Source of the DNA: an uncultured Candidatus Saccharibacteria bacterium
GTDB lineage: Bacteria > Patescibacteriota > Minisyncoccia > Phycocordibacterales > DATGWK01
Assembly: GCA_964428845.1 (NCBI GenBank)
Contig: CAYRZH010000008.1
Location: 1 to 22,599, forward strand
Direction: 5' to 3'
Length of the DNA: 22,599 nucleotides
Below are positions 622-17,443 of this stretch, piece after piece (the first letter of the stretch is position 1; each line of letters opens with the position of its first letter). The notes under the pieces are model-generated. The model was not told where the DNA came from and ran no database searches. It worked only from the letters and a program-made list of their open reading frames with translations. The position numbers and the translations under genes were made by a program.

Positions 622-1995
622 GTGTTCAAGTGGCTCACAAACTCATGGCCATGGAAATGGATCAAAACCCTTAGGAGAAAACAACCGCCGGCACCAGTGC
701 CTCCGGGCCCCTTGCCTTCAGTGACTGCGCCAGTAGCACCTGCCTCGGTAGTTCCGACATCGACTGTTCCTGCCGCCCCTTCTCCCGCACCTTCGGCAAC
801 TCCCGTTCCCTCCCCCGTTCCGACCTCGACAGGTGTTCCATTGGAAGATGACCCCCCGCCACAACCTTCACAGCCTTATTCTCTCGACTTTTTCTGGGAA
901 ATTGTGACCAAGACTTGTTTCGCACTTCTGGTTCTAGACGTTATCATCGGTGTACTTGTGGGACTGCTAACATCAGATCTTCAGACCGGTATAACCACCG
1001 GAGGTCTGATGCTTCTGTTCCAGATTATCTATGCCGTCCTAAGCATCAGAAAAATCGGGGAAAATGAGAATGGTGCACGCCTCTTTTTTGGCCGCCCGAT
1101 TAACAATCTGGTGTCCGGTCCAGCGTTTGTTCCTCTGCTTGTAATGAAGCTAATCAAAGCACCAAAAATCATCGTCCAGCTAGAGATCCCCACTGACCCG
1201 GAGTTCATCTATCGAGCTTCGACAGATGGGTCTCACATCCCCCAGGAATTGGTAGACGCCGGGTACAGGCCTCCGATCAGAACCACGTTCGCTAAGGACC
1301 CCAACTCCAATGAGCCGCTAAGGCAAGAGCTAACGGCAGAAGTTGTACCGGTTGTGCAACTTTTTGTTCACGATCTATGCATATTCCTCGGAACAATCGG
1401 TTCATTTGAGAAGTTGAGAAGACAGATAGAAGATACGTGTGTGGCATTTGCTAACCAACAGCTCGCGAGAAAGGTGCTAGCCGACGTTAGGAAGGATCTG
1501 GGGAATGAAAATGTTGCCCTGCGAACGGAAATCCGTAGGGCAATTGGAAACTGGGGCGTCACTCTGAAAACGGCACTAATCAAGGAGATTCGACTCTCCC
1601 ACGCTCTAAACACATCTATCCAGAGCGCTTCGGATGAAGCAGCAAAGGCCTTGGGAGCAATTATCAAGGCCAAAACACTCAAAGCGACAACCGAACTCGA
1701 AGGCCGAGGTAAGGGTGCTGCAGAGAGAGCGGTTCTGCGCGGAAGGACGACAGGGCTCAAGGACATGGCCAAGAGGCTCAAGGTCCCGATGCCGACAGTT
1801 CTTGGTGCAGAGGTCGCGAGGGATGTTGCAAAAAATCCAGGTCAAACAGTAATCCTGGGAGGAGAAGACGGTTTTGCCGATTTCGCAAAGATCGCAGCCG
1901 GAGTTGGAGGAGCGCTAAAGGGTATGGGAAAACCGAAATCCACTCCCCCCGCCTCCTCTATCACACCACCAACGACTCCCCCTTCGACAACGTGA
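622..1995 (+). CDS. SPFH/band-7 (stomatin/prohibitin/HflK-C-like) membrane protein with ~95-aa proline-rich N-terminal extension and P/T-rich C-terminal tail; GTG start
   Basis: GTG at 622 sits 8 nt after AAAAGGGG. The product has a Pro/Ala/Ser/Thr-rich N-terminus, then one or two TM helices (CFALLVLDVIIGVLVGLL...GGLMLLFQIIYAVLSI). It continues with an SPFH-like core (FFGRPINNLVSGPAFVPLLVMKLIKAPKIIVQLEIPTDPE ... IRRAIGNWGVTLKTALIKEIRLSHALNTSIQSASDEAAKALGAIIKAKTLKATTELEGRGKGAAERA), which matches the WG(I/V)xVxxVxIxDIxxP...AERxxxAxIxxAEGE pattern of band-7 proteins. C-terminus is PKSTPPASSITPPTTPPSTT. Confidence 0.7.
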   Translation: MFKWLTNSWPWKWIKTLRRKQPPAPVPPGPLPSVTAPVAPASVVPTSTVPAAPSPAPSATPVPSPVPTSTGVPLEDDPPPQPSQPYSLDFFWEIVTKTCFALLVLDVIIGVLVGLLTSDLQTGITTGGLMLLFQIIYAVLSIRKIGENENGARLFFGRPINNLVSGPAFVPLLVMKLIKAPKIIVQLEIPTDPEFIYRASTDGSHIPQELVDAGYRPPIRTTFAKDPNSNEPLRQELTAEVVPVVQLFVHDLCIFLGTIGSFEKLRRQIEDTCVAFANQQLARKVLADVRKDLGNENVALRTEIRRAIGNWGVTLKTALIKEIRLSHALNTSIQSASDEAAKALGAIIKAKTLKATTELEGRGKGAAERAVLRGRTTGLKDMAKRLKVPMPTVLGAEVARDVAKNPGQTVILGGEDGFADFAKIAAGVGGALKGMGKPKSTPPASSITPPTTPPSTT

Positions 1996-2139: not shown

Positions 2140-3042
2140 ATGACATCAATCATTGGTCCGGTCGTAGTGGGAATTGTTCTTGGGTGTATTGTGATTCTTA
2201 TAAGAATCCTCGACAAACCGAAAGTGATGACAGATACGGATGGCAAGGTGAGGGCAACGCCAGTCAGTGCTCGTGGAGATGAACCAAAATCAGCACTGGA
2301 AAAGATGGCTGAAGGGTGGAATAAAATCAGGGCAAATATGAGGTTCCTCTACCCCGTGTTTGTTCTTGTTCCCTACTATCTGACAGCCATTGTCTTGTAT
2401 CACTACAAGTCAGTGCTATGGGAACCATGGCCGAAGAATCGTCTGCTCTTTTTCGTGCTCATCCCGGTAGCTCTTTTGATCCCAGTCGGGATTAGAGTAA
2501 CAACTCCTCCCGAAAAGAAGGGGAGAAGAAAACTACCGCTGGCGTTGAGCTTCGTGTTCCTTGGTTCTCTTGTCTACTTTGCCCTTGAGAAGTACTCGGA
2601 AACTGAATGGGGATCCCGGTACGTAGCAAGACTCGAAGACTCTTACGACAGACACCTCGCCACAAAAGCAGAGGCAACCAAACCCCCGCGCTGGCTATGG
2701 ACTAATACAGTGCCGACGGGTGTCAAGCTGAAGAGGGGGGCTGAACATTCTTCAGCCTCCCCACCCTATGTGGCACGGATTCTCGCCGATGACGATGTCC
2801 TTTTCGAGTTTGTCTACTTTTACCCACACAGCTTCGAGGCCAAGTTGCAAGTGGCCCACTTCAGGTGGCCTAAGGCATCTGACCCACTAAAGGGAACCTG
2901 GAGTAAAGTCAACCCGCCCGACAAGGGTGAATGGTACCTCGCACCAAACGGAGCTGGAAACGGCTACGTGGGTTGGTTCACTTCAGAGGATGCTGGGGGC
3001 GACAAGATCGTCATGTGGCTTTACCAGGACCCGGCGAAGTAG
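2140..3042 (+). CDS. Hypothetical integral membrane protein (about 4 TM helices plus ~150-aa C-terminal soluble domain)
   Basis: ORF with RBS. Hydrophobic helices: IIGPVVVGIVLGCIVILIRIL, FLYPVFVLVPYYLTAIVLY, LLFFVLIPVALLIPVGI, LALSFVFLGSLVYFAL. Then a hydrophilic C-terminal region (…GEWYLAPNGAGNGYVGWFTSEDAGGDKIVMWLYQDPAK). No family recognised. It sits directly after the SPFH gene, so an NfeD-like partner is possible but unproven. Confidence 0.55.
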   Translation: MTSIIGPVVVGIVLGCIVILIRILDKPKVMTDTDGKVRATPVSARGDEPKSALEKMAEGWNKIRANMRFLYPVFVLVPYYLTAIVLYHYKSVLWEPWPKNRLLFFVLIPVALLIPVGIRVTTPPEKKGRRKLPLALSFVFLGSLVYFALEKYSETEWGSRYVARLEDSYDRHLATKAEATKPPRWLWTNTVPTGVKLKRGAEHSSASPPYVARILADDDVLFEFVYFYPHSFEAKLQVAHFRWPKASDPLKGTWSKVNPPDKGEWYLAPNGAGNGYVGWFTSEDAGGDKIVMWLYQDPAK

Positions 3043-3073
3043 GTGAGGCAACAGTGCTAAGTTTGATCGCGAT

Positions 3074-3101
3074 GAGCGGGACCTGGTCCCGCTCTTTTTT
3101 T
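3074..3101 (+). terminator. Rho-independent terminator after the 2140..3042 gene
   Basis: GAGCGGGA(3074-3081)/TCCCGCTC(3087-3094) perfect 8-bp stem, loop cctgg, then TTTTTTT (3095-3101). Confidence 0.6.
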
Positions 3102-3156
3102 AATATAATAAACCCCGAGCTAGCTGGGGTGTGCGTTTTCGGCTCTCCTTCTGTCT

Positions 3157-3192
3157 GTTTTTTACAAAACAAAACTGCCCTCTTTAAGGCAG
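3157..3192 (-). terminator. Rho-independent terminator (minus strand) ending the pilin-like gene array
   Basis: On the minus strand: CTGCC-ttaaagag-GGCAG followed by TTTTGTTTTGTAAAAAA. Plus-strand coordinates: stem 3175-3179/3188-3192, U-tract 3157-3174. Located downstream of the stop at 3250. Confidence 0.5.
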
Positions 3193-3249
3193 CTTTGTCC
3201 TTGTCCTATTTTCCCACCAAGGATTCTCCGAGGATCTCTCTCCAAATAT

Positions 3250-3540
3250 TTACCTAAAAATCCAGCTCGGCAGACCAAACGACCCACCTGTCCCACTATC
3301 GATCCCGAACGTGCCAAGAATGATTTTTATAATCCCAAACACAGAGATCATAATGAACATCCCAATAATCCCCCACATTATATTGCGCTTACCCTTTTGC
3401 CGAGCATCTTCACTACCAGCATTACCGATAAACTGAACTAGCCCCCAGAAAAAGACGATGAGCGCAACCACAAACAGGAGACCAATGAGGGGATTGAGGA
3501 TAAATTTATTTATCCCAAAGAGAAGCTGGTTCAAATTCAA
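3250..3540 (-). CDS. VirB2/TrbC-like putative T4SS-type pilin paralog 1 (96 aa; lacks N-terminal signal peptide)
   Basis: Shares the conserved core of the array: LIGLLFVVALIVFFWGLVQFIGNAGSEDARQKGKRNIMWGIIGMFIMISVFGII. That is hydrophobic helix, then GxxExxRxKGK loop, then second hydrophobic helix. It starts directly at the mature-like N-terminus (NLNQLLFGINKFI) with no signal peptide. Confidence 0.6.
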   Translation of the reverse strand: MNLNQLLFGINKFILNPLIGLLFVVALIVFFWGLVQFIGNAGSEDARQKGKRNIMWGIIGMFIMISVFGIIKIILGTFGIDSGTGGSFGLPSWIFR

Positions 3541-3551
3541 ATTAGAGGTTG

Positions 3552-3905
3552 TTAACGATTAACACTAGGAATTGACTGGTTTGATGGTACGGTCCCTAAA
3601 TCGAGAGCCTCTTGAAGCCATCTCACAAGGCCCCAGACCGAGACTATGACAAAAAGGGCGACTATACCCCAGATCATGATGTGCTTGCCCTTGCCTCTCT
3701 CCTCTTCATCACCAGACGCAAGAATGAACTTTGCAAGACCCCAGAAGAAGTATAGGAGGGCGATAGCGCCAACAATTGGGATCAGAAGTTCAATAATGTT
3801 TCCAAAAGAATTCACTAGCTCTTCGAGATTCCCGAGTTGGGCATTGGCAACAGCCGGCAAGACAGTCATAAGAAGTAGAGCTCCTAAAATCAATGTTTTT
3901 TTCAT
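3552..3905 (-). CDS. VirB2/TrbC-like putative T4SS-type pilin paralog 2 (117 aa)
   Basis: Signal peptide MKKTLILGALLLMTVLPAVANA|Q. Then IIELLIPIVGAIALLYFFWGLAKFILASGDEEERGKGKHIMIWGIVALFVIVSVWGLV, a two-helix hairpin with a charged loop. Confidence 0.7.
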   Translation of the reverse strand: MKKTLILGALLLMTVLPAVANAQLGNLEELVNSFGNIIELLIPIVGAIALLYFFWGLAKFILASGDEEERGKGKHIMIWGIVALFVIVSVWGLVRWLQEALDLGTVPSNQSIPSVNR

Positions 3906-4010
3906 TTACTTTTCTTTTTAAATAATAATTACAAATATAAAGCGACCTTTTTTAATATTTTTACACCCACTAATGATACTACAACACAGAGCGGGTACAA
4001 TGTGTAGTTA

Positions 4011-4388
4011 TTAACAGTTTGCGGTACCTGGAGGGCAAAATGTCCCCGAAGGAAGAGTCATTGGTACGCTGTCTAGAAGAGCCTCTTGGATGAAGAAGAC
4101 AATACCCCATATCGAGACTATGACAAACAGGGCGGCTATACCCCAGACCATGATGTGCTTGCCCTCTTCCCTGGCTTTCTCGTCTCCGGCATGCAAGATA
4201 AGTTTTGCGAGGCCCCAGAAGAAATATAGGAGAGCGATGGCGGCGACAATTGGAATAAGCAGATCGATTATCTCTTTGGCTCCATTGATAAGTTCTTTTA
4301 TACCAGTAAAACCCTGGGCCAGAGCAACATTTGCCCAGAGAAGATAGAAAAATATGCTAAATACAATTTTTTTCATATTAAATTTCAC
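4011..4388 (-). CDS. VirB2/TrbC-like putative T4SS-type pilin paralog 3 (125 aa)
   Basis: Signal peptide …LWANVALA|QG. Core IIDLLIPIVAAIALLYFFWGLAKLILHAGDEKAREEGKHIMVWGIAALFVIVSIWGIV. C-terminal CPPGTANC Cys pair. About 85% nt identity to paralog 2 across the core, by eye. Confidence 0.7.
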   Translation of the reverse strand: MKFNMKKIVFSIFFYLLWANVALAQGFTGIKELINGAKEIIDLLIPIVAAIALLYFFWGLAKLILHAGDEKAREEGKHIMVWGIAALFVIVSIWGIVFFIQEALLDSVPMTLPSGTFCPPGTANC

Positions 4389-4776
4389 GTGTTGGTAAAC
4401 GCGGTATTCCTAAGTTGCTAAAACCAAATTCTCCCTGTAGAAACTCGATGATTCCCCACACGGAGACCAATACAAAAAGAGCAATAATCCCCCATTTCAT
4501 TATCTGCTTGCCCTCTTCTCTGGCTTTCTCGTCCCCGGCCCTCAAGATAAACTTTGCCAACCCCCAAAAAAATACAAGCAGAGCGATGCCTATCACAAGA
4601 GGGAGAGCAGAATAAATAAGATCAGTGAAGACCAAAAAAACATCACAAAGTGATTCGGGTGGAGTCCGGACAGCACAATCCGACGGGAAAGCAAAAGTTA
4701 AGGTTGGTAAAAAAAGAGTAAAGAGTATCACCAAAAAACGCGAACTAAAAAACACTATAGATTTCTTATTGATCAT
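4378..4776 (-). CDS. VirB2/TrbC-like putative T4SS-type pilin paralog 4 (132 aa)
   Basis: Signal peptide …LPTLTFA|F. Mature N-terminus contains a Cys pair (SDCAVRTPPESLC). Core LPLVIGIALLVFFWGLAKFILRAGDEKAREEGKQIMKWGIIALFVLVSVWGII. Overlaps paralog 3 by 11 nt. Confidence 0.7.
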   Translation of the reverse strand: MINKKSIVFFSSRFLVILFTLFLPTLTFAFPSDCAVRTPPESLCDVFLVFTDLIYSALPLVIGIALLVFFWGLAKFILRAGDEKAREEGKQIMKWGIIALFVLVSVWGIIEFLQGEFGFSNLGIPRLPTREI

Positions 4777-5189
4777 GATGGGATTGGAGAAGTCGGACTA
4801 CATATAGCAGGAGCGATTTGGCAGACTGTGTTCTGGATAGCGAGAGCAATAGCCCAAGCACCAAGAAGTACGGCCGCCCCGACTACTACCCACAGAAACG
4901 TATGCTTGGCTTTCTGGAGCTTGGTTTCATCACCCCCCGCGGTAACAAAAAGAAAACCAGAGTAGATTATGAAAAAAACGACAACGACGGCCCCGATCGG
5001 CAAAACAACATTCTCCAAAACTTCTTTTACAAAGGCGTAAATACTAGTTACGTTGTTTGCTAGAGGATTCTGAAGCTTCGGTGGGTCTCCGGCATTGTAT
5101 TGTCCCGGCTGTGCCAAGATAAGTGCGGCAGGAGACACAGCAAGAAGGAAAATACTTAGAGAGAAGAAAATGATCTTAAAGACTTTCAT
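4773..5189 (-). CDS. Divergent VirB2/TrbC-like pilin paralog 5 (138 aa)
   Basis: Signal peptide MKVFKIIFFSLSIFLLAVSPAALILA|QP. Core VLPIGAVVVVFFIIYSGFLFVTAGGDETKLQKAKHTFLWVVVGAAVLLGAWAIALAI. C-terminal CQIAPAIC Cys pair. Shares a 4-nt ATGA overlap with paralog 4. Confidence 0.65.
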   Translation of the reverse strand: MKVFKIIFFSLSIFLLAVSPAALILAQPGQYNAGDPPKLQNPLANNVTSIYAFVKEVLENVVLPIGAVVVVFFIIYSGFLFVTAGGDETKLQKAKHTFLWVVVGAAVLLGAWAIALAIQNTVCQIAPAICSPTSPIPS

Positions 5190-5283
5190 CGGGATAATTT
5201 TAACAAATACAAGCCACTACAGCAAAGGCTCAAAAGCTACAGAGAGTCGCCAGGAGCTTCTTTTGGATAGACCTCGGCAGGAC

Positions 5284-5733
5284 TTAGTTGAACCTCTCAA
5301 GCAAGTCGTAATAACTACAATTTGGATCGGCTGGGTCACAGAGAAGCGCGCTCGTAATCGTTCTTACTATGAGCCAGGCTGTGAGGACAAAGATAAAACC
5401 AATGAGAACTTTGGTAAATATCTCCTTGGCTTTTGAGACCTGCCCCGCATTCCCCGCCGCCGTAAGAAAAAGATAGCCTGCATAGGCAAAGGCTATGGCA
5501 GACAGGGGTATGGAGATCGAGATAAAGAAATTCATGATGTTGTGCGCCAGCCTAAGGAGCGCGGCAAAATCACACTTAAGACCCTTGCCATCGATACTCA
5601 CGCCATCACATGGAACAATAGGACCCGGTGACACACTTTGACCAAAGACGGTCGGAGCCACCATAAAAGCCAAAAGTACAACCGGAACAATGATCAGAAA
5701 AACTTTTCTTAAATTTATGATTTTATTTTTCAT
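5284..5733 (-). CDS. Divergent VirB2/TrbC-like pilin paralog 6 (149 aa)
   Basis: Signal peptide …LAFMVAPTVFG|QS. N-terminal CDGVSIDGKGLKC Cys pair. Core IPLSAIAFAYAGYLFLTAAGNAGQVSKAKEIFTKVLIGFIFVLTAWLIV. C-terminal CDPADPNC Cys pair. Overlapped 11 nt by the upstream SBP-like gene. Confidence 0.65.
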   Translation of the reverse strand: MKNKIINLRKVFLIIVPVVLLAFMVAPTVFGQSVSPGPIVPCDGVSIDGKGLKCDFAALLRLAHNIMNFFISISIPLSAIAFAYAGYLFLTAAGNAGQVSKAKEIFTKVLIGFIFVLTAWLIVRTITSALLCDPADPNCSYYDLLERFN

Positions 5734-7027
5734 TTAAAAGAAGATTGAGTTCAGAACTCGCCTTCGAGATTGCCTCTGTGGGCATAGCCCTTCCGCCAGT
5801 CACCGACTCTATCATTTCTCTAAACACATTTTCTGTTTTCGACACCTCTGGAGAAAGCCAGCCACGAGCCTGGATGGCACCATCGTAGAAAACCGAAGAA
5901 AAAGTACCGGTGGGCTTGTTCAGAAGAAGACTCCTGTGGACTGGCGGCAAGCCGGTAGCCTTGCTCAATTCGGCGATGGCCGCCGGGGTAGTCATGAGCA
6001 TCGCCGCCTTGAATGCGCCGATAATATTTTTTGAATTTTTGGGTACCGCAAGCCCGTTCATCCGGCCGAACGTAATGACCCGTGGTGAATCCTTGGATTG
6101 GAGTATAGGGGCTACGTCGAAGTTTAAATTGGGATTCTTCTGTCTCAAGTCTTCTGCTTCTGAAGCAAAACCGAAGTAAAGCGCTAGATTACCAGAAAGA
6201 AAGAAGCTTTTTGAGGATGGCAGCGAGCGGTTCCAAGAATAAAATGGTTTAAGTGGGTTTGAAAATTCGGTATAAAAACTTAGGGCTCTGATAGCTGGTG
6301 GTACTGGAAAGTTTAGCGGGCTGTTAAAAATATTATCGAAGGAATTGTTCTCCCTGCGAACCACGATGGGACTCCCCGCCTGCATAGTGAGAAGACTGAA
6401 AAGCTCCAAGGCATGAGTGACGTTCCCGTATTCACCGAGGGCAACCGCGCTTTCGGTGATATTTAGATTGTTATCTTTTTTGGTCAGTTTTTCCGATAGA
6501 TCGTATAGTTCACTCCAATTCTTGGGTGGGATACTGATACCTGCACTAGAAAAAGTATCTCTGTTCCAATACATAACCATCGGATCTACCGTAAAAGGCA
6601 GAGCTATGGCGCCATCGCTCTTGAGGTAGATTTCTCCTTCTTCTATAAAATTCTCTTTAAATTTCCTCTCCGAGTAGCTTTCAAAAGGAATTGTCACTAC
6701 TTTATCTTGATGTTTAACTATAGAATTTTCAGCCAGGAAGAAAAGGTCCGGACCACTTTGCGAGGCGAGCGCCTCGATGAAATCCTCATCGAACGTCGCT
6801 TCGTTCTTTTCTACGTATGCTATGGCAACAGTCTTATCTGAAGAAATCTTAGAATCTCGCAGAAACCTATCAAACCTCGCCTTCTCCATCGTGCCCCAGA
6901 CAACGACACTTCCAAAACTGTTGGACGGTCCACTTCTTCCCCCAAATGCAAAAATAAGAACTCCAATAACAATAAATACCGCGAAGGCTCCGATAAGCAC
7001 CCACTGGAAAATTGACATTTCTTTCAT
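5723..7027 (-). CDS. N-terminally TM-anchored extracellular solute-binding protein family-1-like (sugar-ABC SBP-like) protein; no cognate permease/ATPase in the window
   Basis: N-terminal anchor IFQWVLIGAFAVFIVIGVLIFAF. The motif MVMYWNRDTFSSAGISIPPKNWSELYDLSEKL resembles the MalE-type SBP signature (YNKDLF..AGL..PPKTWDEL). Length of 434 aa fits an SBP. Confidence 0.5.
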   Translation of the reverse strand: MKEMSIFQWVLIGAFAVFIVIGVLIFAFGGRSGPSNSFGSVVVWGTMEKARFDRFLRDSKISSDKTVAIAYVEKNEATFDEDFIEALASQSGPDLFFLAENSIVKHQDKVVTIPFESYSERKFKENFIEEGEIYLKSDGAIALPFTVDPMVMYWNRDTFSSAGISIPPKNWSELYDLSEKLTKKDNNLNITESAVALGEYGNVTHALELFSLLTMQAGSPIVVRRENNSFDNIFNSPLNFPVPPAIRALSFYTEFSNPLKPFYSWNRSLPSSKSFFLSGNLALYFGFASEAEDLRQKNPNLNFDVAPILQSKDSPRVITFGRMNGLAVPKNSKNIIGAFKAAMLMTTPAAIAELSKATGLPPVHRSLLLNKPTGTFSSVFYDGAIQARGWLSPEVSKTENVFREMIESVTGGRAMPTEAISKASSELNLLLNEK

Positions 7028-7047
7028 ACTTTTATTATATCTCTATT

Positions 7048-14969: not shown

Positions 14970-16130
14970 ATGCTTACAAAAGAAAAGGTTTCGGAAGTAG
15001 AAAAAAAGGTTCAAACAGAAGAACCAAAAGAGGATCTGAACGAAAAAGAAGAAAAGGAAATAAAAGCCAAAAAAGATTCACCGATGACAAAGTTCTTGGC
15101 GGAAACCAAGACCCCCCCATCCGTTGGTGACCTCATTGAAGGCACAGTTATTGCCGTAGAAAAAACTTCTGTTTATGTGGATATTCCTCCGTTCGGCACG
15201 GGTATCATTTTCGGTAGAGAGTTTATCAATGCCAAGGATGTTATCAAGAAGATAAACCCAGGCGACGGCATCGCTGGCAAGGTTGTTTCTATAGACAACG
15301 AGCATGGATATATCGAAATTTCTCTCAAAGAGGCTCGCCAGGCCCTTATCTGGAACGAAGCTGAAGAAGCAATAAAAAGTAAAACTATTTACGAACTTCC
15401 TGTCCAAGACGCCAACAAGGGCGGACTTATCCTCGCCTGGCAAGGGTTAAGTGGTTTCCTTCCGGCTTCACAGCTCAAAACCGAGCACTACCCTCGTGTA
15501 ACCGACGGCGACAAAGACAAGATTCTCGAGGAACTTAGAAAACTTATCGGCCAAAAAATTTCTGTCTCTATCATAGGCGCTCTGCCAAAAGAAGGTAAAT
15601 TGATTTTCTCTGAAAAGAATCCTGAACTTAAAAACAAAGAGAAAATTATCGGTAAGTACACTATTGGAGAAGAGGTTTTGGGCGAAGTGACAGGACTTGT
15701 GGACTTCGGTGTATTTGTAAAGCTCGAGGAAGGTCTCGAGGGTTTGGTGCATATTTCTGAAGTAGATTGGGCACTCGTTGAGAACCTCAAGGTTATGTTC
15801 AAGGTTGGCGACAAAGTTCGAGTAAAAATTATCGAGATCAAGGACGGCAAGATTTCCCTTTCTATAAAAGCTCTCAAACCAAATCCTTGGATAGAAGCTG
15901 AAAAGAAATATAAAAAAGATGACGTGGTTGCCGCAGTCATTATCAAATTCAACAAACACGGGGCCCTTGCTTCTATAGAAGAAGGCGTGGCTGGCCTAGT
16001 TCATATTTCAGAGTTTGGAAATGAAACCAAAATGCGAGAGAAACTTTCTCTAGGAAAGAGCTACACATTCAAAATCACTCTCTTTGATCCTAAAGAGCAA
16101 AAGATGACGTTGTCTTTTGTGGAAAAATAG
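14970..16130 (+). CDS. rpsA: 30S ribosomal protein S1 (short form, four S1 domains)
   Basis: Acidic and Lys-rich N-terminus, then four OB/S1 repeats of about 70 aa each. They are GDLIEGTVIAVEKTSVYVDI…, GGLILAWQGLSGFLPASQL…, GEEVLGEVTGLVDFGVFVKLEEGLEGLVHISEV… and DDVVAAVIIKFNKHGALASIEEGVAGLVHISEF…. Start may be the later Met (MTKFLAE). Confidence 0.75.
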   Translation: MLTKEKVSEVEKKVQTEEPKEDLNEKEEKEIKAKKDSPMTKFLAETKTPPSVGDLIEGTVIAVEKTSVYVDIPPFGTGIIFGREFINAKDVIKKINPGDGIAGKVVSIDNEHGYIEISLKEARQALIWNEAEEAIKSKTIYELPVQDANKGGLILAWQGLSGFLPASQLKTEHYPRVTDGDKDKILEELRKLIGQKISVSIIGALPKEGKLIFSEKNPELKNKEKIIGKYTIGEEVLGEVTGLVDFGVFVKLEEGLEGLVHISEVDWALVENLKVMFKVGDKVRVKIIEIKDGKISLSIKALKPNPWIEAEKKYKKDDVVAAVIIKFNKHGALASIEEGVAGLVHISEFGNETKMREKLSLGKSYTFKITLFDPKEQKMTLSFVEK

Positions 16131-16167
16131 AATTTTCCACGGGCAATAGTACTCGCGATAGTACTTG

Positions 16168-16761
16168 TTACCCCCTGTTAAACTCTCCCATCGCTTTTTC
16201 GCGGTCTTCGGTGACAAGCATCTCCAGAGCCGCCGGAACTTTCTTGAAAACCTTTTTAAGGGCGTCGTGTTCGGCTGGCCGAAATTTCCCCAAAATAAAC
16301 TTATCTACCGCTTCGTCACCTGAAGGCTTTTTTGTCTTTCCAGACGGAGTTGTCGGTGAAATGCCTATTCTGATACGAAGAAATGCCTCGGTTTTCAAGG
16401 TTTTGATAATAGACTCAAGTCCTTTGTGACCTCCGGAACTCCTATTCCAAGATATTTTCATCCTTCCTACTGGCAAATCTAGATCATCATAGATTACGAT
16501 GAGTTTTTCTGCGGCCTTTTTACTCTTTATCACTGCCGCAGCCGACAATCCAGATTTGTTCATAAATGTCTCTGGCTCTAAAAACAATACCCTCTCGTTC
16601 TTTACCTTGCCTTCCGACGCTAGAGCCTTCATCTTTTTGTCCTCTTTCCAGTCAGATAGACCAAAACTCTTCCGAACATACTCGAGTGTCATGCGACCGA
16701 CGTTGTGCCGCGTCTCTTTATATTCCTCACCTGGATTTCCTAGGCCGATTATGACGTACAT
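16168..16761 (-). CDS. pth: Peptidyl-tRNA hydrolase
   Basis: MYVIIGLGNPGEEYKETRHNVGRMTLEYV matches the Pth N-terminus (GLGNPG…TRHN(A/V)G). Start moved to the internal Met at 16761 (197 aa). The ORF-table start at 16812 adds 17 non-conserved residues. Confidence 0.85.
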   Translation of the reverse strand: MYVIIGLGNPGEEYKETRHNVGRMTLEYVRKSFGLSDWKEDKKMKALASEGKVKNERVLFLEPETFMNKSGLSAAAVIKSKKAAEKLIVIYDDLDLPVGRMKISWNRSSGGHKGLESIIKTLKTEAFLRIRIGISPTTPSGKTKKPSGDEAVDKFILGKFRPAEHDALKKVFKKVPAALEMLVTEDREKAMGEFNRG

Positions 16762-16831: not shown

Positions 16832-17443
16832 ATGGACGAACATTCTCACAGTAAAGATAGGAAATTGTCAGAAGATGGAGGAGATAAGAAAGCTAAAGGT
16901 GGTTTTTGGAGTGAAATAATAAAGTTTACACTGATCGCGGTCGTCATAGTCGTGCCCATTCGAGTGTTTATTGCCCAACCCTTCATTGTCTCTGGAGCTT
17001 CAATGGATCCTACCTTCAAAAATGGTGAATATTTGATTGTTGACCAGTTGAGTTATCGCCTCGAACAACCAAAAAGGGAGTCTGTGATCATATTTAGATA
17101 CCCAAAGAAGCCCAGCACCTTCTTTATAAAGCGTGTCATCGGTCTGCCTGGTGAAAAAATAGAGATAGAGAAGGGTGTGGTGAAAGTAATAAACGAAGAA
17201 AATCCAAAAGGTTTTATCCTCACGGACGATTACGTCGATCCCAACAACAAAAAATATGATGACTTCGAGATCGACCTAGGGAGCGAAGAATATTTTGTTA
17301 TGGGAGACAATCGACTCGGTAGTCTAGACTCAAGGGCCTGGGGACCAGTGAAAGAAGATTTGATTATCGGCCGACCGATCATTCGAGTATTACCATTCGA
17401 CAAAGCATCTATCTTCCCTGGTGCTCTAGAAGAAGCGAATTAA
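16832..17443 (+). CDS. lepB: Signal peptidase I (S26A family)
   Basis: N-terminal TM segment, catalytic Ser box GASMDPTF, Lys box KRVIGLPGEKI, and box E GDNRLGSLDSRAWG. Confidence 0.9.
   Translation: MDEHSHSKDRKLSEDGGDKKAKGGFWSEIIKFTLIAVVIVVPIRVFIAQPFIVSGASMDPTFKNGEYLIVDQLSYRLEQPKRESVIIFRYPKKPSTFFIKRVIGLPGEKIEIEKGVVKVINEENPKGFILTDDYVDPNNKKYDDFEIDLGSEEYFVMGDNRLGSLDSRAWGPVKEDLIIGRPIIRVLPFDKASIFPGALEEAN

Follow-up and report, generated by a model that had tools for sequence, protein, structure and literature searches.

Six consecutive genes on the minus strand of a 22,599-nucleotide (nt) stretch of contig CAYRZH010000008.1, hereafter called the window, encode paralogous proteins that, by profile match and predicted topology, are pilin-like members of the VirB2/TrbC superfamily (Pfam family PF18895, T4SS_pilin). 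Comparison with related genomes indicates that they belong to four classes arranged in a fixed order, and we consider it fairly probable that the array supplies the building blocks of a surface filament or channel of mixed composition, which a type IV secretion system (T4SS) encoded at a distance would assemble for host contact. The window is a complete NCBI contig with the gene content of a housekeeping chromosome and, by the labels of its relatives, belongs to a Paceibacteria bacterium (Patescibacteria, candidate phyla radiation [CPR]). A preliminary description had reported six consecutive minus-strand genes for proteins of 96 to 149 amino acids (aa), and the listing of open reading frames (ORFs) bears this out to the coordinate, within a span from 3250 to 5733. 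The copies are numbered 1 to 6 by rising coordinate; since all lie on the minus strand, copy 6 occupies array position 1. They are given below in array order, with a slash marking the predicted cleavage site of the signal peptide.

5284-5733, minus strand: copy 6, class A, array position 1, 149 aa; signal peptide VFG/Q; PF18895 33.5 bits; Cys pair in the outer N-segment
4773-5189, minus strand: copy 5, class B, array position 2, 138 aa; signal peptide ILA/Q; PF18895 29.3 bits, PF04956 (TrbC) 25.9 bits; TrbC/VirB2-like member
4378-4776, minus strand: copy 4, class C (middle, variable-number), 132 aa; signal peptide TFA/F; PF18895 42.8 bits
4011-4376, minus strand: copy 3, class C, 121 aa from the ATG at 4376; signal peptide ALA/Q; PF18895 44.4 bits
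3552-3905, minus strand: copy 2, last class C copy, penultimate gene, 117 aa; signal peptide ANA/Q; PF18895 56.2 bits (best of the six)
3250-3540, minus strand: copy 1, class D, terminal gene, 96 aa (94 aa in the NCBI call), TTG start; no signal peptide; PF18895 35.9 bits

All six proteins score above the gathering threshold of PF18895 (29.3 to 56.2 bits; threshold, 26.6 bits), and a six-fold match of this kind lies, on profile scores, far beyond chance. The searches with hidden Markov models (HMMs) returned no better rival family and thus uphold the assignment to VirB2/TrbC-like pilins that had first been proposed. For PF04956 (TrbC/VirB2; gathering threshold, 27.9 bits), copies 5 and 6 reached 25.9 bits (E = 1.2e-5) and 12.7 bits, respectively, both below threshold, and copies 1 to 4 gave no match; among the class B orthologs of copy 5, 46 of 53 match PF04956 at E ≤ 1e-3 (best, 6.6e-9) and all 53 match PF18895. 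The TrbC matches of class B indicate homology at the level of the superfamily and not membership of the window proteins in family PF04956. Five copies also match the NCBIfam model NF045849 (Mbov_0395 pilin-like conjugal transfer protein of Mycoplasma integrative and conjugative elements [ICEs]) with 24.5 to 34.8 bits (E = 1e-8 to 1e-5), all below its equivalog cut-off of 40 bits; copy 6 does not match. In a profile search against the PDB, the top-ranking entry was the pKM101 pilin TraM (8cw4), which was not significant (E = 0.13).

Small size and two transmembrane (TM) helices would equally suit membrane proteins of another kind, for instance holins, bacteriocin immunity proteins, or pilins of type IV pili (T4P), and there is a weak PDB match to the lactococcin-A immunity protein (E = 0.63) as well as one PHROG match of unknown function (E = 0.003). 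Searches of the six proteins against Pfam, PHROGs, and NCBIfam, however, returned no holin or immunity family, and the array lies in a housekeeping chromosome context instead of a prophage or bacteriocin locus, so that we regard an origin from such proteins as extremely improbable. T4P pilins are rejected as well, since the proteins match neither PF07963 (N_methyl) nor the class III leader pattern G/FxxxE, their leaders being of type I with AxA-type sites.

Alignment of the six proteins shows a common core, flanked by variable termini, in which two hydrophobic helices are joined by a short loop of the form A-G-D/S-E-x-x-R/K-x-x-G/A-K. Both helices peak at hydropathy values of 2.2 to 2.8 in every copy, and each loop contains two to four Lys or Arg residues. 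AlphaFold predicts a two-helix hairpin for copy 2, with a mean predicted local distance difference test (pLDDT) value of 79.8 for the full-length protein, 82.5 for the mature protein, and about 90 for the core, the helices of the mature domain being H3-40 and H45-78. Alignment, hydropathy, and AlphaFold thus agree on the core of two hydrophobic helices and a charged loop that the preliminary description had recognised by reading the DNA. Signal peptides were called with a hydropathy script from their n-, h-, and c-regions and from AxA-type cleavage-site rules. By these rules, five of the six proteins carry a type I signal peptide with a Lys-rich n-region, an h-region, and one of the cleavage sites listed above; the leader originally ascribed to all six is missing from copy 1, which contains only two hydrophobic segments and begins at the position where the mature domain of the other copies starts. 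Since the terminal gene likewise lacks a leader in 48 of 57 related arrays, this state is conserved and copy 1 is not a truncation.

For the comparison, genomes were scanned with the solute-binding protein (SBP)-like protein encoded directly upstream of the array, which yielded at least 570 relatives, of which 80 species-level loci (handles beginning with L) were kept; the loci are conditioned on this protein, and the reverse direction, with a pilin as query, rests on four look-ups on long contigs. The relatives are labelled Paceibacteria, Parcubacteria, Zambryskibacteria, Yonathbacteria, Taylorbacteria, or Minisyncoccia. In them, the block consists of a methyltransferase (MTase) gene, the SBP-like gene, and then five to eight PF18895 genes on one strand. 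The class analysis used 57 complete arrays, of which 8 contain five genes, 27 six, 21 seven, and 1 eight, and best matches were determined against the 56 arrays other than the one under study. The best match of copy 6 was the position-1 gene in 55 of these 56, that of copy 5 the position-2 gene in 54, and that of copy 1 the last gene in 44, while copies 2, 3, and 4 are nearer to one another than to most matches across genomes and map to variable middle positions. To judge from this pattern, the order of the array is fixed as A-B-C(n)-D, with four classes and with n = 2 to 5 copies of class C; classes A, B, and D appear as ancient, single-copy, position-specific orthologs, and class C as recently duplicated and concertedly evolving.

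The sequences themselves display the same division. Within the window, copies 2 to 4 are mutually 55 to 68% identical at the protein level (copy 4 shares 68% with copy 3 and 55% with copy 2) and have a common 194-nt DNA repeat of 60 to 74% identity, its copy 3 instance (D1) lying at 4078-4271. Copy 1 shows 40 to 50% identity to copies 2 to 4, and copies 5 and 6 share 21 to 29% with every other copy, the pairwise identities of the six tandem genes thus ranging from 21 to 68%. Consensus sequences of classes A to D are distinct. Specifically, in class A, C42 and C54, the Cys pair of the outer N-segment, are at least 90% conserved; in class C, the membrane core is kept (15 to 21 of 23 residues per helix) and both outward tails are divergent; and class D, with 78 to 102 aa in most arrays, retains the N-terminal motif FLxKxxxxILNPxIxLxF.

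Variation has been proposed as the role of the VirB2 paralogs of Bartonella and Anaplasma and was suggested for those of Patescibacteria (PMC12102498). Applied to the window, the array would comprise interchangeable variants of one major pilin that arose by tandem amplification and are kept for antigenic or host-range variation. The class C copies behave accordingly, being recent duplicates whose number changes from genome to genome and whose differences are found mainly in the outward tails. For classes A, B, and D the opposite holds: they are ancient, single-copy, and position-fixed across 57 genomes, A and B are only distantly similar to the rest, D lacks a leader, and free amplification predicts neither a conserved order nor the dedicated internal promoter described below. 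Because these three classes are fixed and divergent, the idea of variation fits class C only, and for the array as a whole we hold it to be rather unlikely.

One relative provides a view of the orientation of class B. Locus L035 encodes, at 9747-16259 on the plus strand, a 2,170-aa protein with a signal peptide, He_PIG, Big_9, cadherin, PKD, and fn3 domains, and a C-terminal class B pilin domain (residues 2087 to 2166), that is, an adhesin ectodomain of approximately 2,000 aa fused to a class B pilin. The fusion shows the mature N-terminus to be outward-facing and able to carry an adhesin. The class A gene of the same locus (8105-8959) has a low-complexity N-terminal extension of approximately 170 aa.

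The spacing of the genes suggests where the array is transcribed from within. The following two features flank or interrupt it.

3906-4010, minus strand: 105-nt gap upstream of the penultimate gene; putative internal promoter (-35 TTGTAC at 4000-3995, 16-nt spacer, -10 TATCAT at 3978-3973)
3165-3192, minus strand: terminator-like hairpin CTGCC-TTAAAGAG-GGCAG followed by TTTTGTTTTG, after copy 1 at the operon end; read from the sequence, with the same hairpin listed on the plus strand by the scan

Of the overlaps of 4 to 11 nt originally reported between the genes, the one of 4 nt between copies 5 and 4 (ATGA) is real. That of 11 nt between copies 4 and 3 is a start-codon artefact, arising solely with an upstream GTG at 4388 (ORF 4011-4388, 125 aa); the likelier start is the ATG at 4376 (MKKIVF...), which matches the NCBI gene call of 121 aa and leaves a 1-nt gap. 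A real 11-nt overlap exists where the end of the SBP-like gene (stop at 5723) covers the start of copy 6. Likewise, the preliminary description had taken two gaps of the array to be AT-rich and perhaps to hold internal promoters, which is accurate for the gap at 3906-4010 (105 nt, 73% A+T) and incorrect for that at 5190-5283 (94 nt, 53% A+T, the window average). In the set of 57 arrays, the penultimate gene is preceded by a gap with a median length of 101 nt, which reaches 60 nt or more in 91% of cases, whereas the other gaps within the arrays have medians of 7 to 18 nt. In relatives, the penultimate-gene gaps carry a promoter of the form TTGnnn-N16/17-TATAAT, and L014 and L015, the nearest relatives of the window, have hexamers similar to its own. 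A conserved internal promoter is thus predicted to precede the penultimate gene. A promoter in the 94-nt gap was considered and rejected, as this gap is not AT-rich, is not conserved (gaps at this place have a median of approximately 10 nt), and contains no convincing hexamers. The terminator-like hairpin is weak, with a stem of 5 bp, and the total of the promoter and terminator scan of 3000-7700 was not above that of shuffled sequences. The array has a G+C content of 0.42 to 0.46, the same as its housekeeping neighbours.

Further features of the penultimate-gene gap were noted. A linear motif, AAnGGTCG(Y)T, lies in the 5' untranslated region (5'UTR) approximately 35 to 45 nt ahead of the start codon of the penultimate pilin gene (GGTCGCT at 3947-3941, minus strand, in the window) and could be aligned across 16 genomes, namely, the window and 15 loci (alignment A8); an operator, a site of protein binding, and a region of transcription start are all conceivable functions. 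Neither an RNA structure nor an RNA family was detected in the 105-nt gap and 5'UTR (Rfam scan; single-sequence fold, z = +0.9; alignment fold, 0 consensus pairs). In the related arrays, 6.07 kb of penultimate-gene gaps contain 16 exact copies of the DnaA-box consensus TTATCCACA, compared with 14 in the other 1.02 Mb, an enrichment of approximately 190-fold, and with at most one mismatch it is present in 33 of the 57 gaps (loci L007 to L086, e.g., L043:12875-12975, L058:12932-13031, and L028:13189-13280). The box sits 5 to 6 nt upstream of the -35 hexamer in either orientation, differing by subclade. Enrichment and placement suggest that in many Paceibacteria pilin expression depends on DnaA. 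Note that the box is not a property of the window, whose penultimate-gene gap contains no DnaA box and in which matches overall are at the chance level (65 versus 62 ± 8). In cultured Paceibacteria, T4SS pilins, including an adjacent pair, were among the five most expressed signal-peptide genes (Kuroda et al. 2024, PMC10936435), a ranking consistent with strong expression of class D and the last class C copy from the internal promoter.

Two genes directly upstream of the array belong to the same block.

5723-7027, minus strand: SBP-like gene of the sugar/UgpB/MalE type, TM-anchored, 434 aa; PF01547 67.6 bits, PF13416 60.6 bits
7048-7608, minus strand: class I S-adenosylmethionine (SAM)-dependent MTase, first gene of the MTase-SBP-pilin block; Pfam Methyltransf_31/11/25

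The best PDB relatives of the SBP-like protein, which has one N-terminal TM segment, are MBP1 (4r9f), UgpB, and maltodextrin-binding (MalE-type) proteins, and in the homologue search all of the top 120 were at least 47% identical. It shares with UgpB, MalE, and MBP1 the family, an extracytoplasmic location, and a membrane anchor, and differs from them in its conserved translational coupling to a downstream pilin array and in having no permease or ATPase nearby: neither the window nor any of the four related contexts with full annotation contains an ABC_tran or BPD_transp domain. In essentially all 80 loci, the SBP-like gene is followed by the pilin array; the junction (n = 74) has a median of 3 nt, is 30 nt or shorter in 84%, and is overlapping in 22%. 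The MTase gene lies directly upstream of the SBP-like gene in 68 of the 80 loci, with a median gap of 10 nt. In L001 and L088, genes are inserted between gyrA and the MTase gene, yet the order MTase-SBP-array is intact. The MTase might be functionally linked to the pilins, modification of the pilins or of the SBP-like protein being one possibility.

Apart from the block, the window is occupied largely by housekeeping genes, including gyrA, the gene of a metallo-β-lactamase (MBL)-fold protein, an rpsA-like S1 gene, pth, lepB, an aminoacyl-tRNA synthetase gene, ybeY, ftsA, ftsZ, and tRNA-Leu. The lepB gene bears on the processing of the pilins.

16832-17443, plus strand: signal peptidase I (LepB); Peptidase_S26 147 bits; syntenic in relatives

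The signal peptidase I gene that had been noted at 16832 was confirmed by its Peptidase_S26 domain, and, given the AxA-type sites, LepB is the presumed processing enzyme of the five leader-bearing pilins; no TraF-like peptidase was found by Pfam in the window. As for the assembly machinery, the earlier expectation that it would be elsewhere or absent was resolved for relatives in favour of elsewhere. Among four named genomes with the same block, three were scored VirB4-positive (PMC12102498, Table S1), and in GCA_000996025.1 a pilin-VirB4-TrsD-VirB3 cluster occupies genes 156 to 162, approximately 250 genes away from the sole distal VirB2 at gene 409 (Table S3). For GCA_000996025.1 and GCA_000996035.1, the latter table lists one to three distal VirB2 genes, compared with five to eight tandem PF18895 genes by the present HMM searches (cf. 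L036); published HMM surveys thus under-count distal arrays in Paceibacteria.

These observations can be assembled into the following picture of a mixed filament or channel. Sec would export five of the copies, which signal peptidase I would cleave, and the leaderless copy would insert directly into the membrane. Each protein would adopt a two-helix membrane hairpin with both ends outside and the basic loop inside. A chromosomal T4SS of the monoderm type (VirB4/TrsD/VirB3/VirB6), encoded elsewhere and, in relatives, near dnaA, would extract subunits from this pool and polymerise them, the product being a surface filament or channel for contact with the host cell. Minor, initiating, or adaptor roles are probable for classes A, B, and D, with A and B as specialised subunits and B able to carry an adhesin; the last class C copy and class D, which lie behind their own promoter, are probably abundant major subunits, with copy 2 as the candidate major subunit. 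The MTase and the orphan sugar-type SBP encoded upstream would be co-transcribed with the array and may aid the recognition of host glycans. With four ancient classes in a fixed order, the array is not a set of six interchangeable copies.

Several points weigh against this picture. No pilus of a PF18895 protein has been visualised in any organism according to the literature. As first described, no VirB4, VirB6, or VirD4 domain is present in any ORF of the window (Pfam); no T4SS machinery was found in the four related loci for which full Pfam gene tables over ±10 kb were made, nor among scanned representatives of the recurrent downstream gene clusters of other loci. The fourth of the block-bearing genomes mentioned above, a draft assembly, was scored VirB4-negative. 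The virB4 clusters of relatives already hold a PF18895 pilin of their own, and because of this the distal array may not be a substrate of the T4SS. Structure searches match hundreds of helical hairpins and have no power to single out a pilin hairpin. The promoter hexamers of the window are weak and were missed by the generic scan of 3000-7700. Finally, the whole neighbourhood lepB-pth-S1-MBL-gyrA is syntenic across the clade (gyrA, 62 to 81% identical), so that the linkage of the MTase and SBP genes to the array may be historical and is no proof of a shared function.

Part of this evidence would suit a different explanation, in which the MTase-SBP-pilin block is a T4SS-independent envelope module and the hairpins, either remaining in the membrane or self-assembling, form a hetero-oligomeric platform or pore that acts with the SBP in uptake or in adhesion to host glycans. 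The tight coupling of the SBP and pilin genes, the integrity of the block where its adjacency to gyrA is broken, the SBP without a cognate permease or ATPase nearby, the lack of any T4SS gene near the array in every context examined, the separate pilin of the virB4 cluster, and the VirB4-negative genome all speak for it. However, the proteins fall by HMM into families of conjugative pilins, the general synteny of the clade can account for the linkage, no case is known of SBPs acting with two-helix hairpin proteins, and Saccharibacteria have a comparable array that is essential and forms part of the T4SS cluster (PMC10633639). We therefore treat such a module as a tentative alternative and think it unlikely. 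Assembly by a distal T4SS remains the reading we prefer.

Arrays of VirB2-like pilins in Patescibacteria have already been published, and the present array adds one more. In Ca. Southlakia epibionticum, Wang et al. 2023 (PMC10633639) found that the T4SS cluster, which is essential, includes a run of predicted pilins. A survey of 3,035 genomes, for which Quiñonero-Coronel et al. 2025 (PMC12102498) used PF18895, PF04956, and further profiles, yielded 441 arrays of 2 to 11 VirB2-like genes, with a mean identity of about 25% and a maximum of 54%; a pilin was near virB4 in 1,135 of 1,948 assemblies, pilins away from virB4 were also counted, virB4 was near dnaA in Paceibacteria, and arrays were commonest in Microgenomatia and Saccharimonadia. 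Of the notion that such genes are typical of T4SS loci of CPR and Gram-positive bacteria, with which the preliminary description had introduced them, the first half is in line with these publications, whereas Gram-positive T4SS loci are generally described as being without VirB2 (PMC12102498, PMC12857230); the wording of the latter paper is limited to a "potential to elaborate conjugative pili." The published arrays (SEML1_0006-0019 of Ca. Southlakia epibionticum ML1, the "Sec-secreted array" of Ca. Nanosynbacter lyticus TM7x, and those of PMC12102498) resemble that of the window in belonging to PF18895, in consisting of tandem divergent paralogs in about six copies with a Sec leader and a two-helix hairpin, and in their monoderm CPR hosts, which have a chromosomal FATA-like T4SS without a relaxase. 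The present array differs in lying far from virB4, in belonging to the class Paceibacteria, and in its conserved context lepB-pth-S1-MBL-gyrA-MTase-SBP; PMC12102498 describes neither the order A-B-C(n)-D nor a leaderless terminal gene, coupling to an SBP, or the internal promoter.

Among more distant systems, TrbC of RP4, VirB2 of Agrobacterium, and TraM of pKM101 (PF04956) likewise have a leader peptide, two hydrophobic helices, and a short basic loop. In contrast to these, five of the six copies are below the reach of the model, the host is monoderm, there is no TraF-type cyclase, VirB5, or outer-membrane core, and several distinct classes take the place of one major pilin. The Mbov_0395 proteins of Mycoplasma ICEs (NF045849) and PrgF of MPF-FATA systems, which also matches PF18895 (PMC12102498, Table S3), share the hairpin domain of about 80 residues and the monoderm T4SS setting, yet they are single-copy proteins within the transfer modules of ICEs or plasmids, unlike the chromosomal multi-class array described here. 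The Trw pilins of Bartonella and the VirB2 paralogs of Anaplasma and other Rickettsiales are tandem pilins with variable exposed parts that are thought to broaden host-surface recognition; these bacteria are diderm pathogens of eukaryotes, and their paralogs are variants of one class adjoining the machinery, whereas three of the four classes considered here appear to be ancient and non-interchangeable.

Other genes of the window and of related loci deserve mention. On the far side of the array, downstream of it and convergent, the window encodes a 457-aa SPFH/Band_7-like protein with a Pro-rich N-terminus (622-1995, plus strand), which is syntenic in at least 12 loci plus L087 and L088, and a 300-aa protein with four TM segments and no family match (2140-3042, plus strand), which was found in none of the 80 loci. 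The DNA of both genes has a G+C content of about 0.50 and lies beside tRNA-Leu (417-499), and this region may represent a second island. In relatives, TM-anchored proteins of approximately 360 to 400 aa without a Pfam match are encoded directly downstream of the array and convergent to it, in clusters of 34, 19, and 5 loci; a flotillin/SPFH-like C-terminal repeat was recognised by eye in the representative of cluster 0. Examples of these genes are the following.

L014:14641-15825, minus strand: TM-anchored protein downstream of the array
L064:9977-11152, minus strand: TM-anchored protein downstream of the array
L055:14014-15093, minus strand: TM-anchored protein downstream of the array

Upstream of the block, an ORF of 939 aa (916 aa in the NCBI call) at 11912-14731 on the plus strand encodes a full-length homologue of the major vault protein (MVP_shoulder, 2e-22; Vault_3; Vault repeat) on a G+C-rich stretch (0.52 to 0.54 versus about 0.43). 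This ORF and an adjacent one of 188 aa (11161-11727, plus strand) are both absent from all 80 syntenic loci and are therefore an insertion between the MBL gene and the S1 gene. Homologues approximately 40% identical exist in Myxococcota, Bacteroidota, Riflebacteria, and other phyla, and the only close relative (67%) is located on a 3.1-kb contig; for a CPR bacterium with its ultrasmall cells, a vault-shell protein is an odd find.

Much of bacterial diversity belongs to Patescibacteria, whose members live attached to other microbes, and in the one species tested the T4SS and its pilin array are essential. What the present comparison contributes is the ordered four-class architecture, the leaderless class, the two companion genes, and the regulatory region in Paceibacteria, and it turns the multiplicity of such arrays into questions about which subunit is the major one, whether class B is the carrier of adhesins, whether class D is an assembly partner, and whether DnaA regulates expression. 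A bolder proposal, which we find distinctly doubtful, is that the distal MTase-SBP-pilin block is a previously undescribed organelle locus: its product would be a hetero-polymeric filament of four non-interchangeable classes, with A and B as initiator or tip (B able to carry adhesins), C as the variable major subunit, and D as a leaderless partner, the SBP would act as a sensor or lectin for host glycans, and the promoter of the major subunit would, in many species, be under the control of DnaA via the box just upstream of its -35 hexamer. If this were true, the production of a host-contact organelle would be coupled to the replication state of an obligate epibiont.

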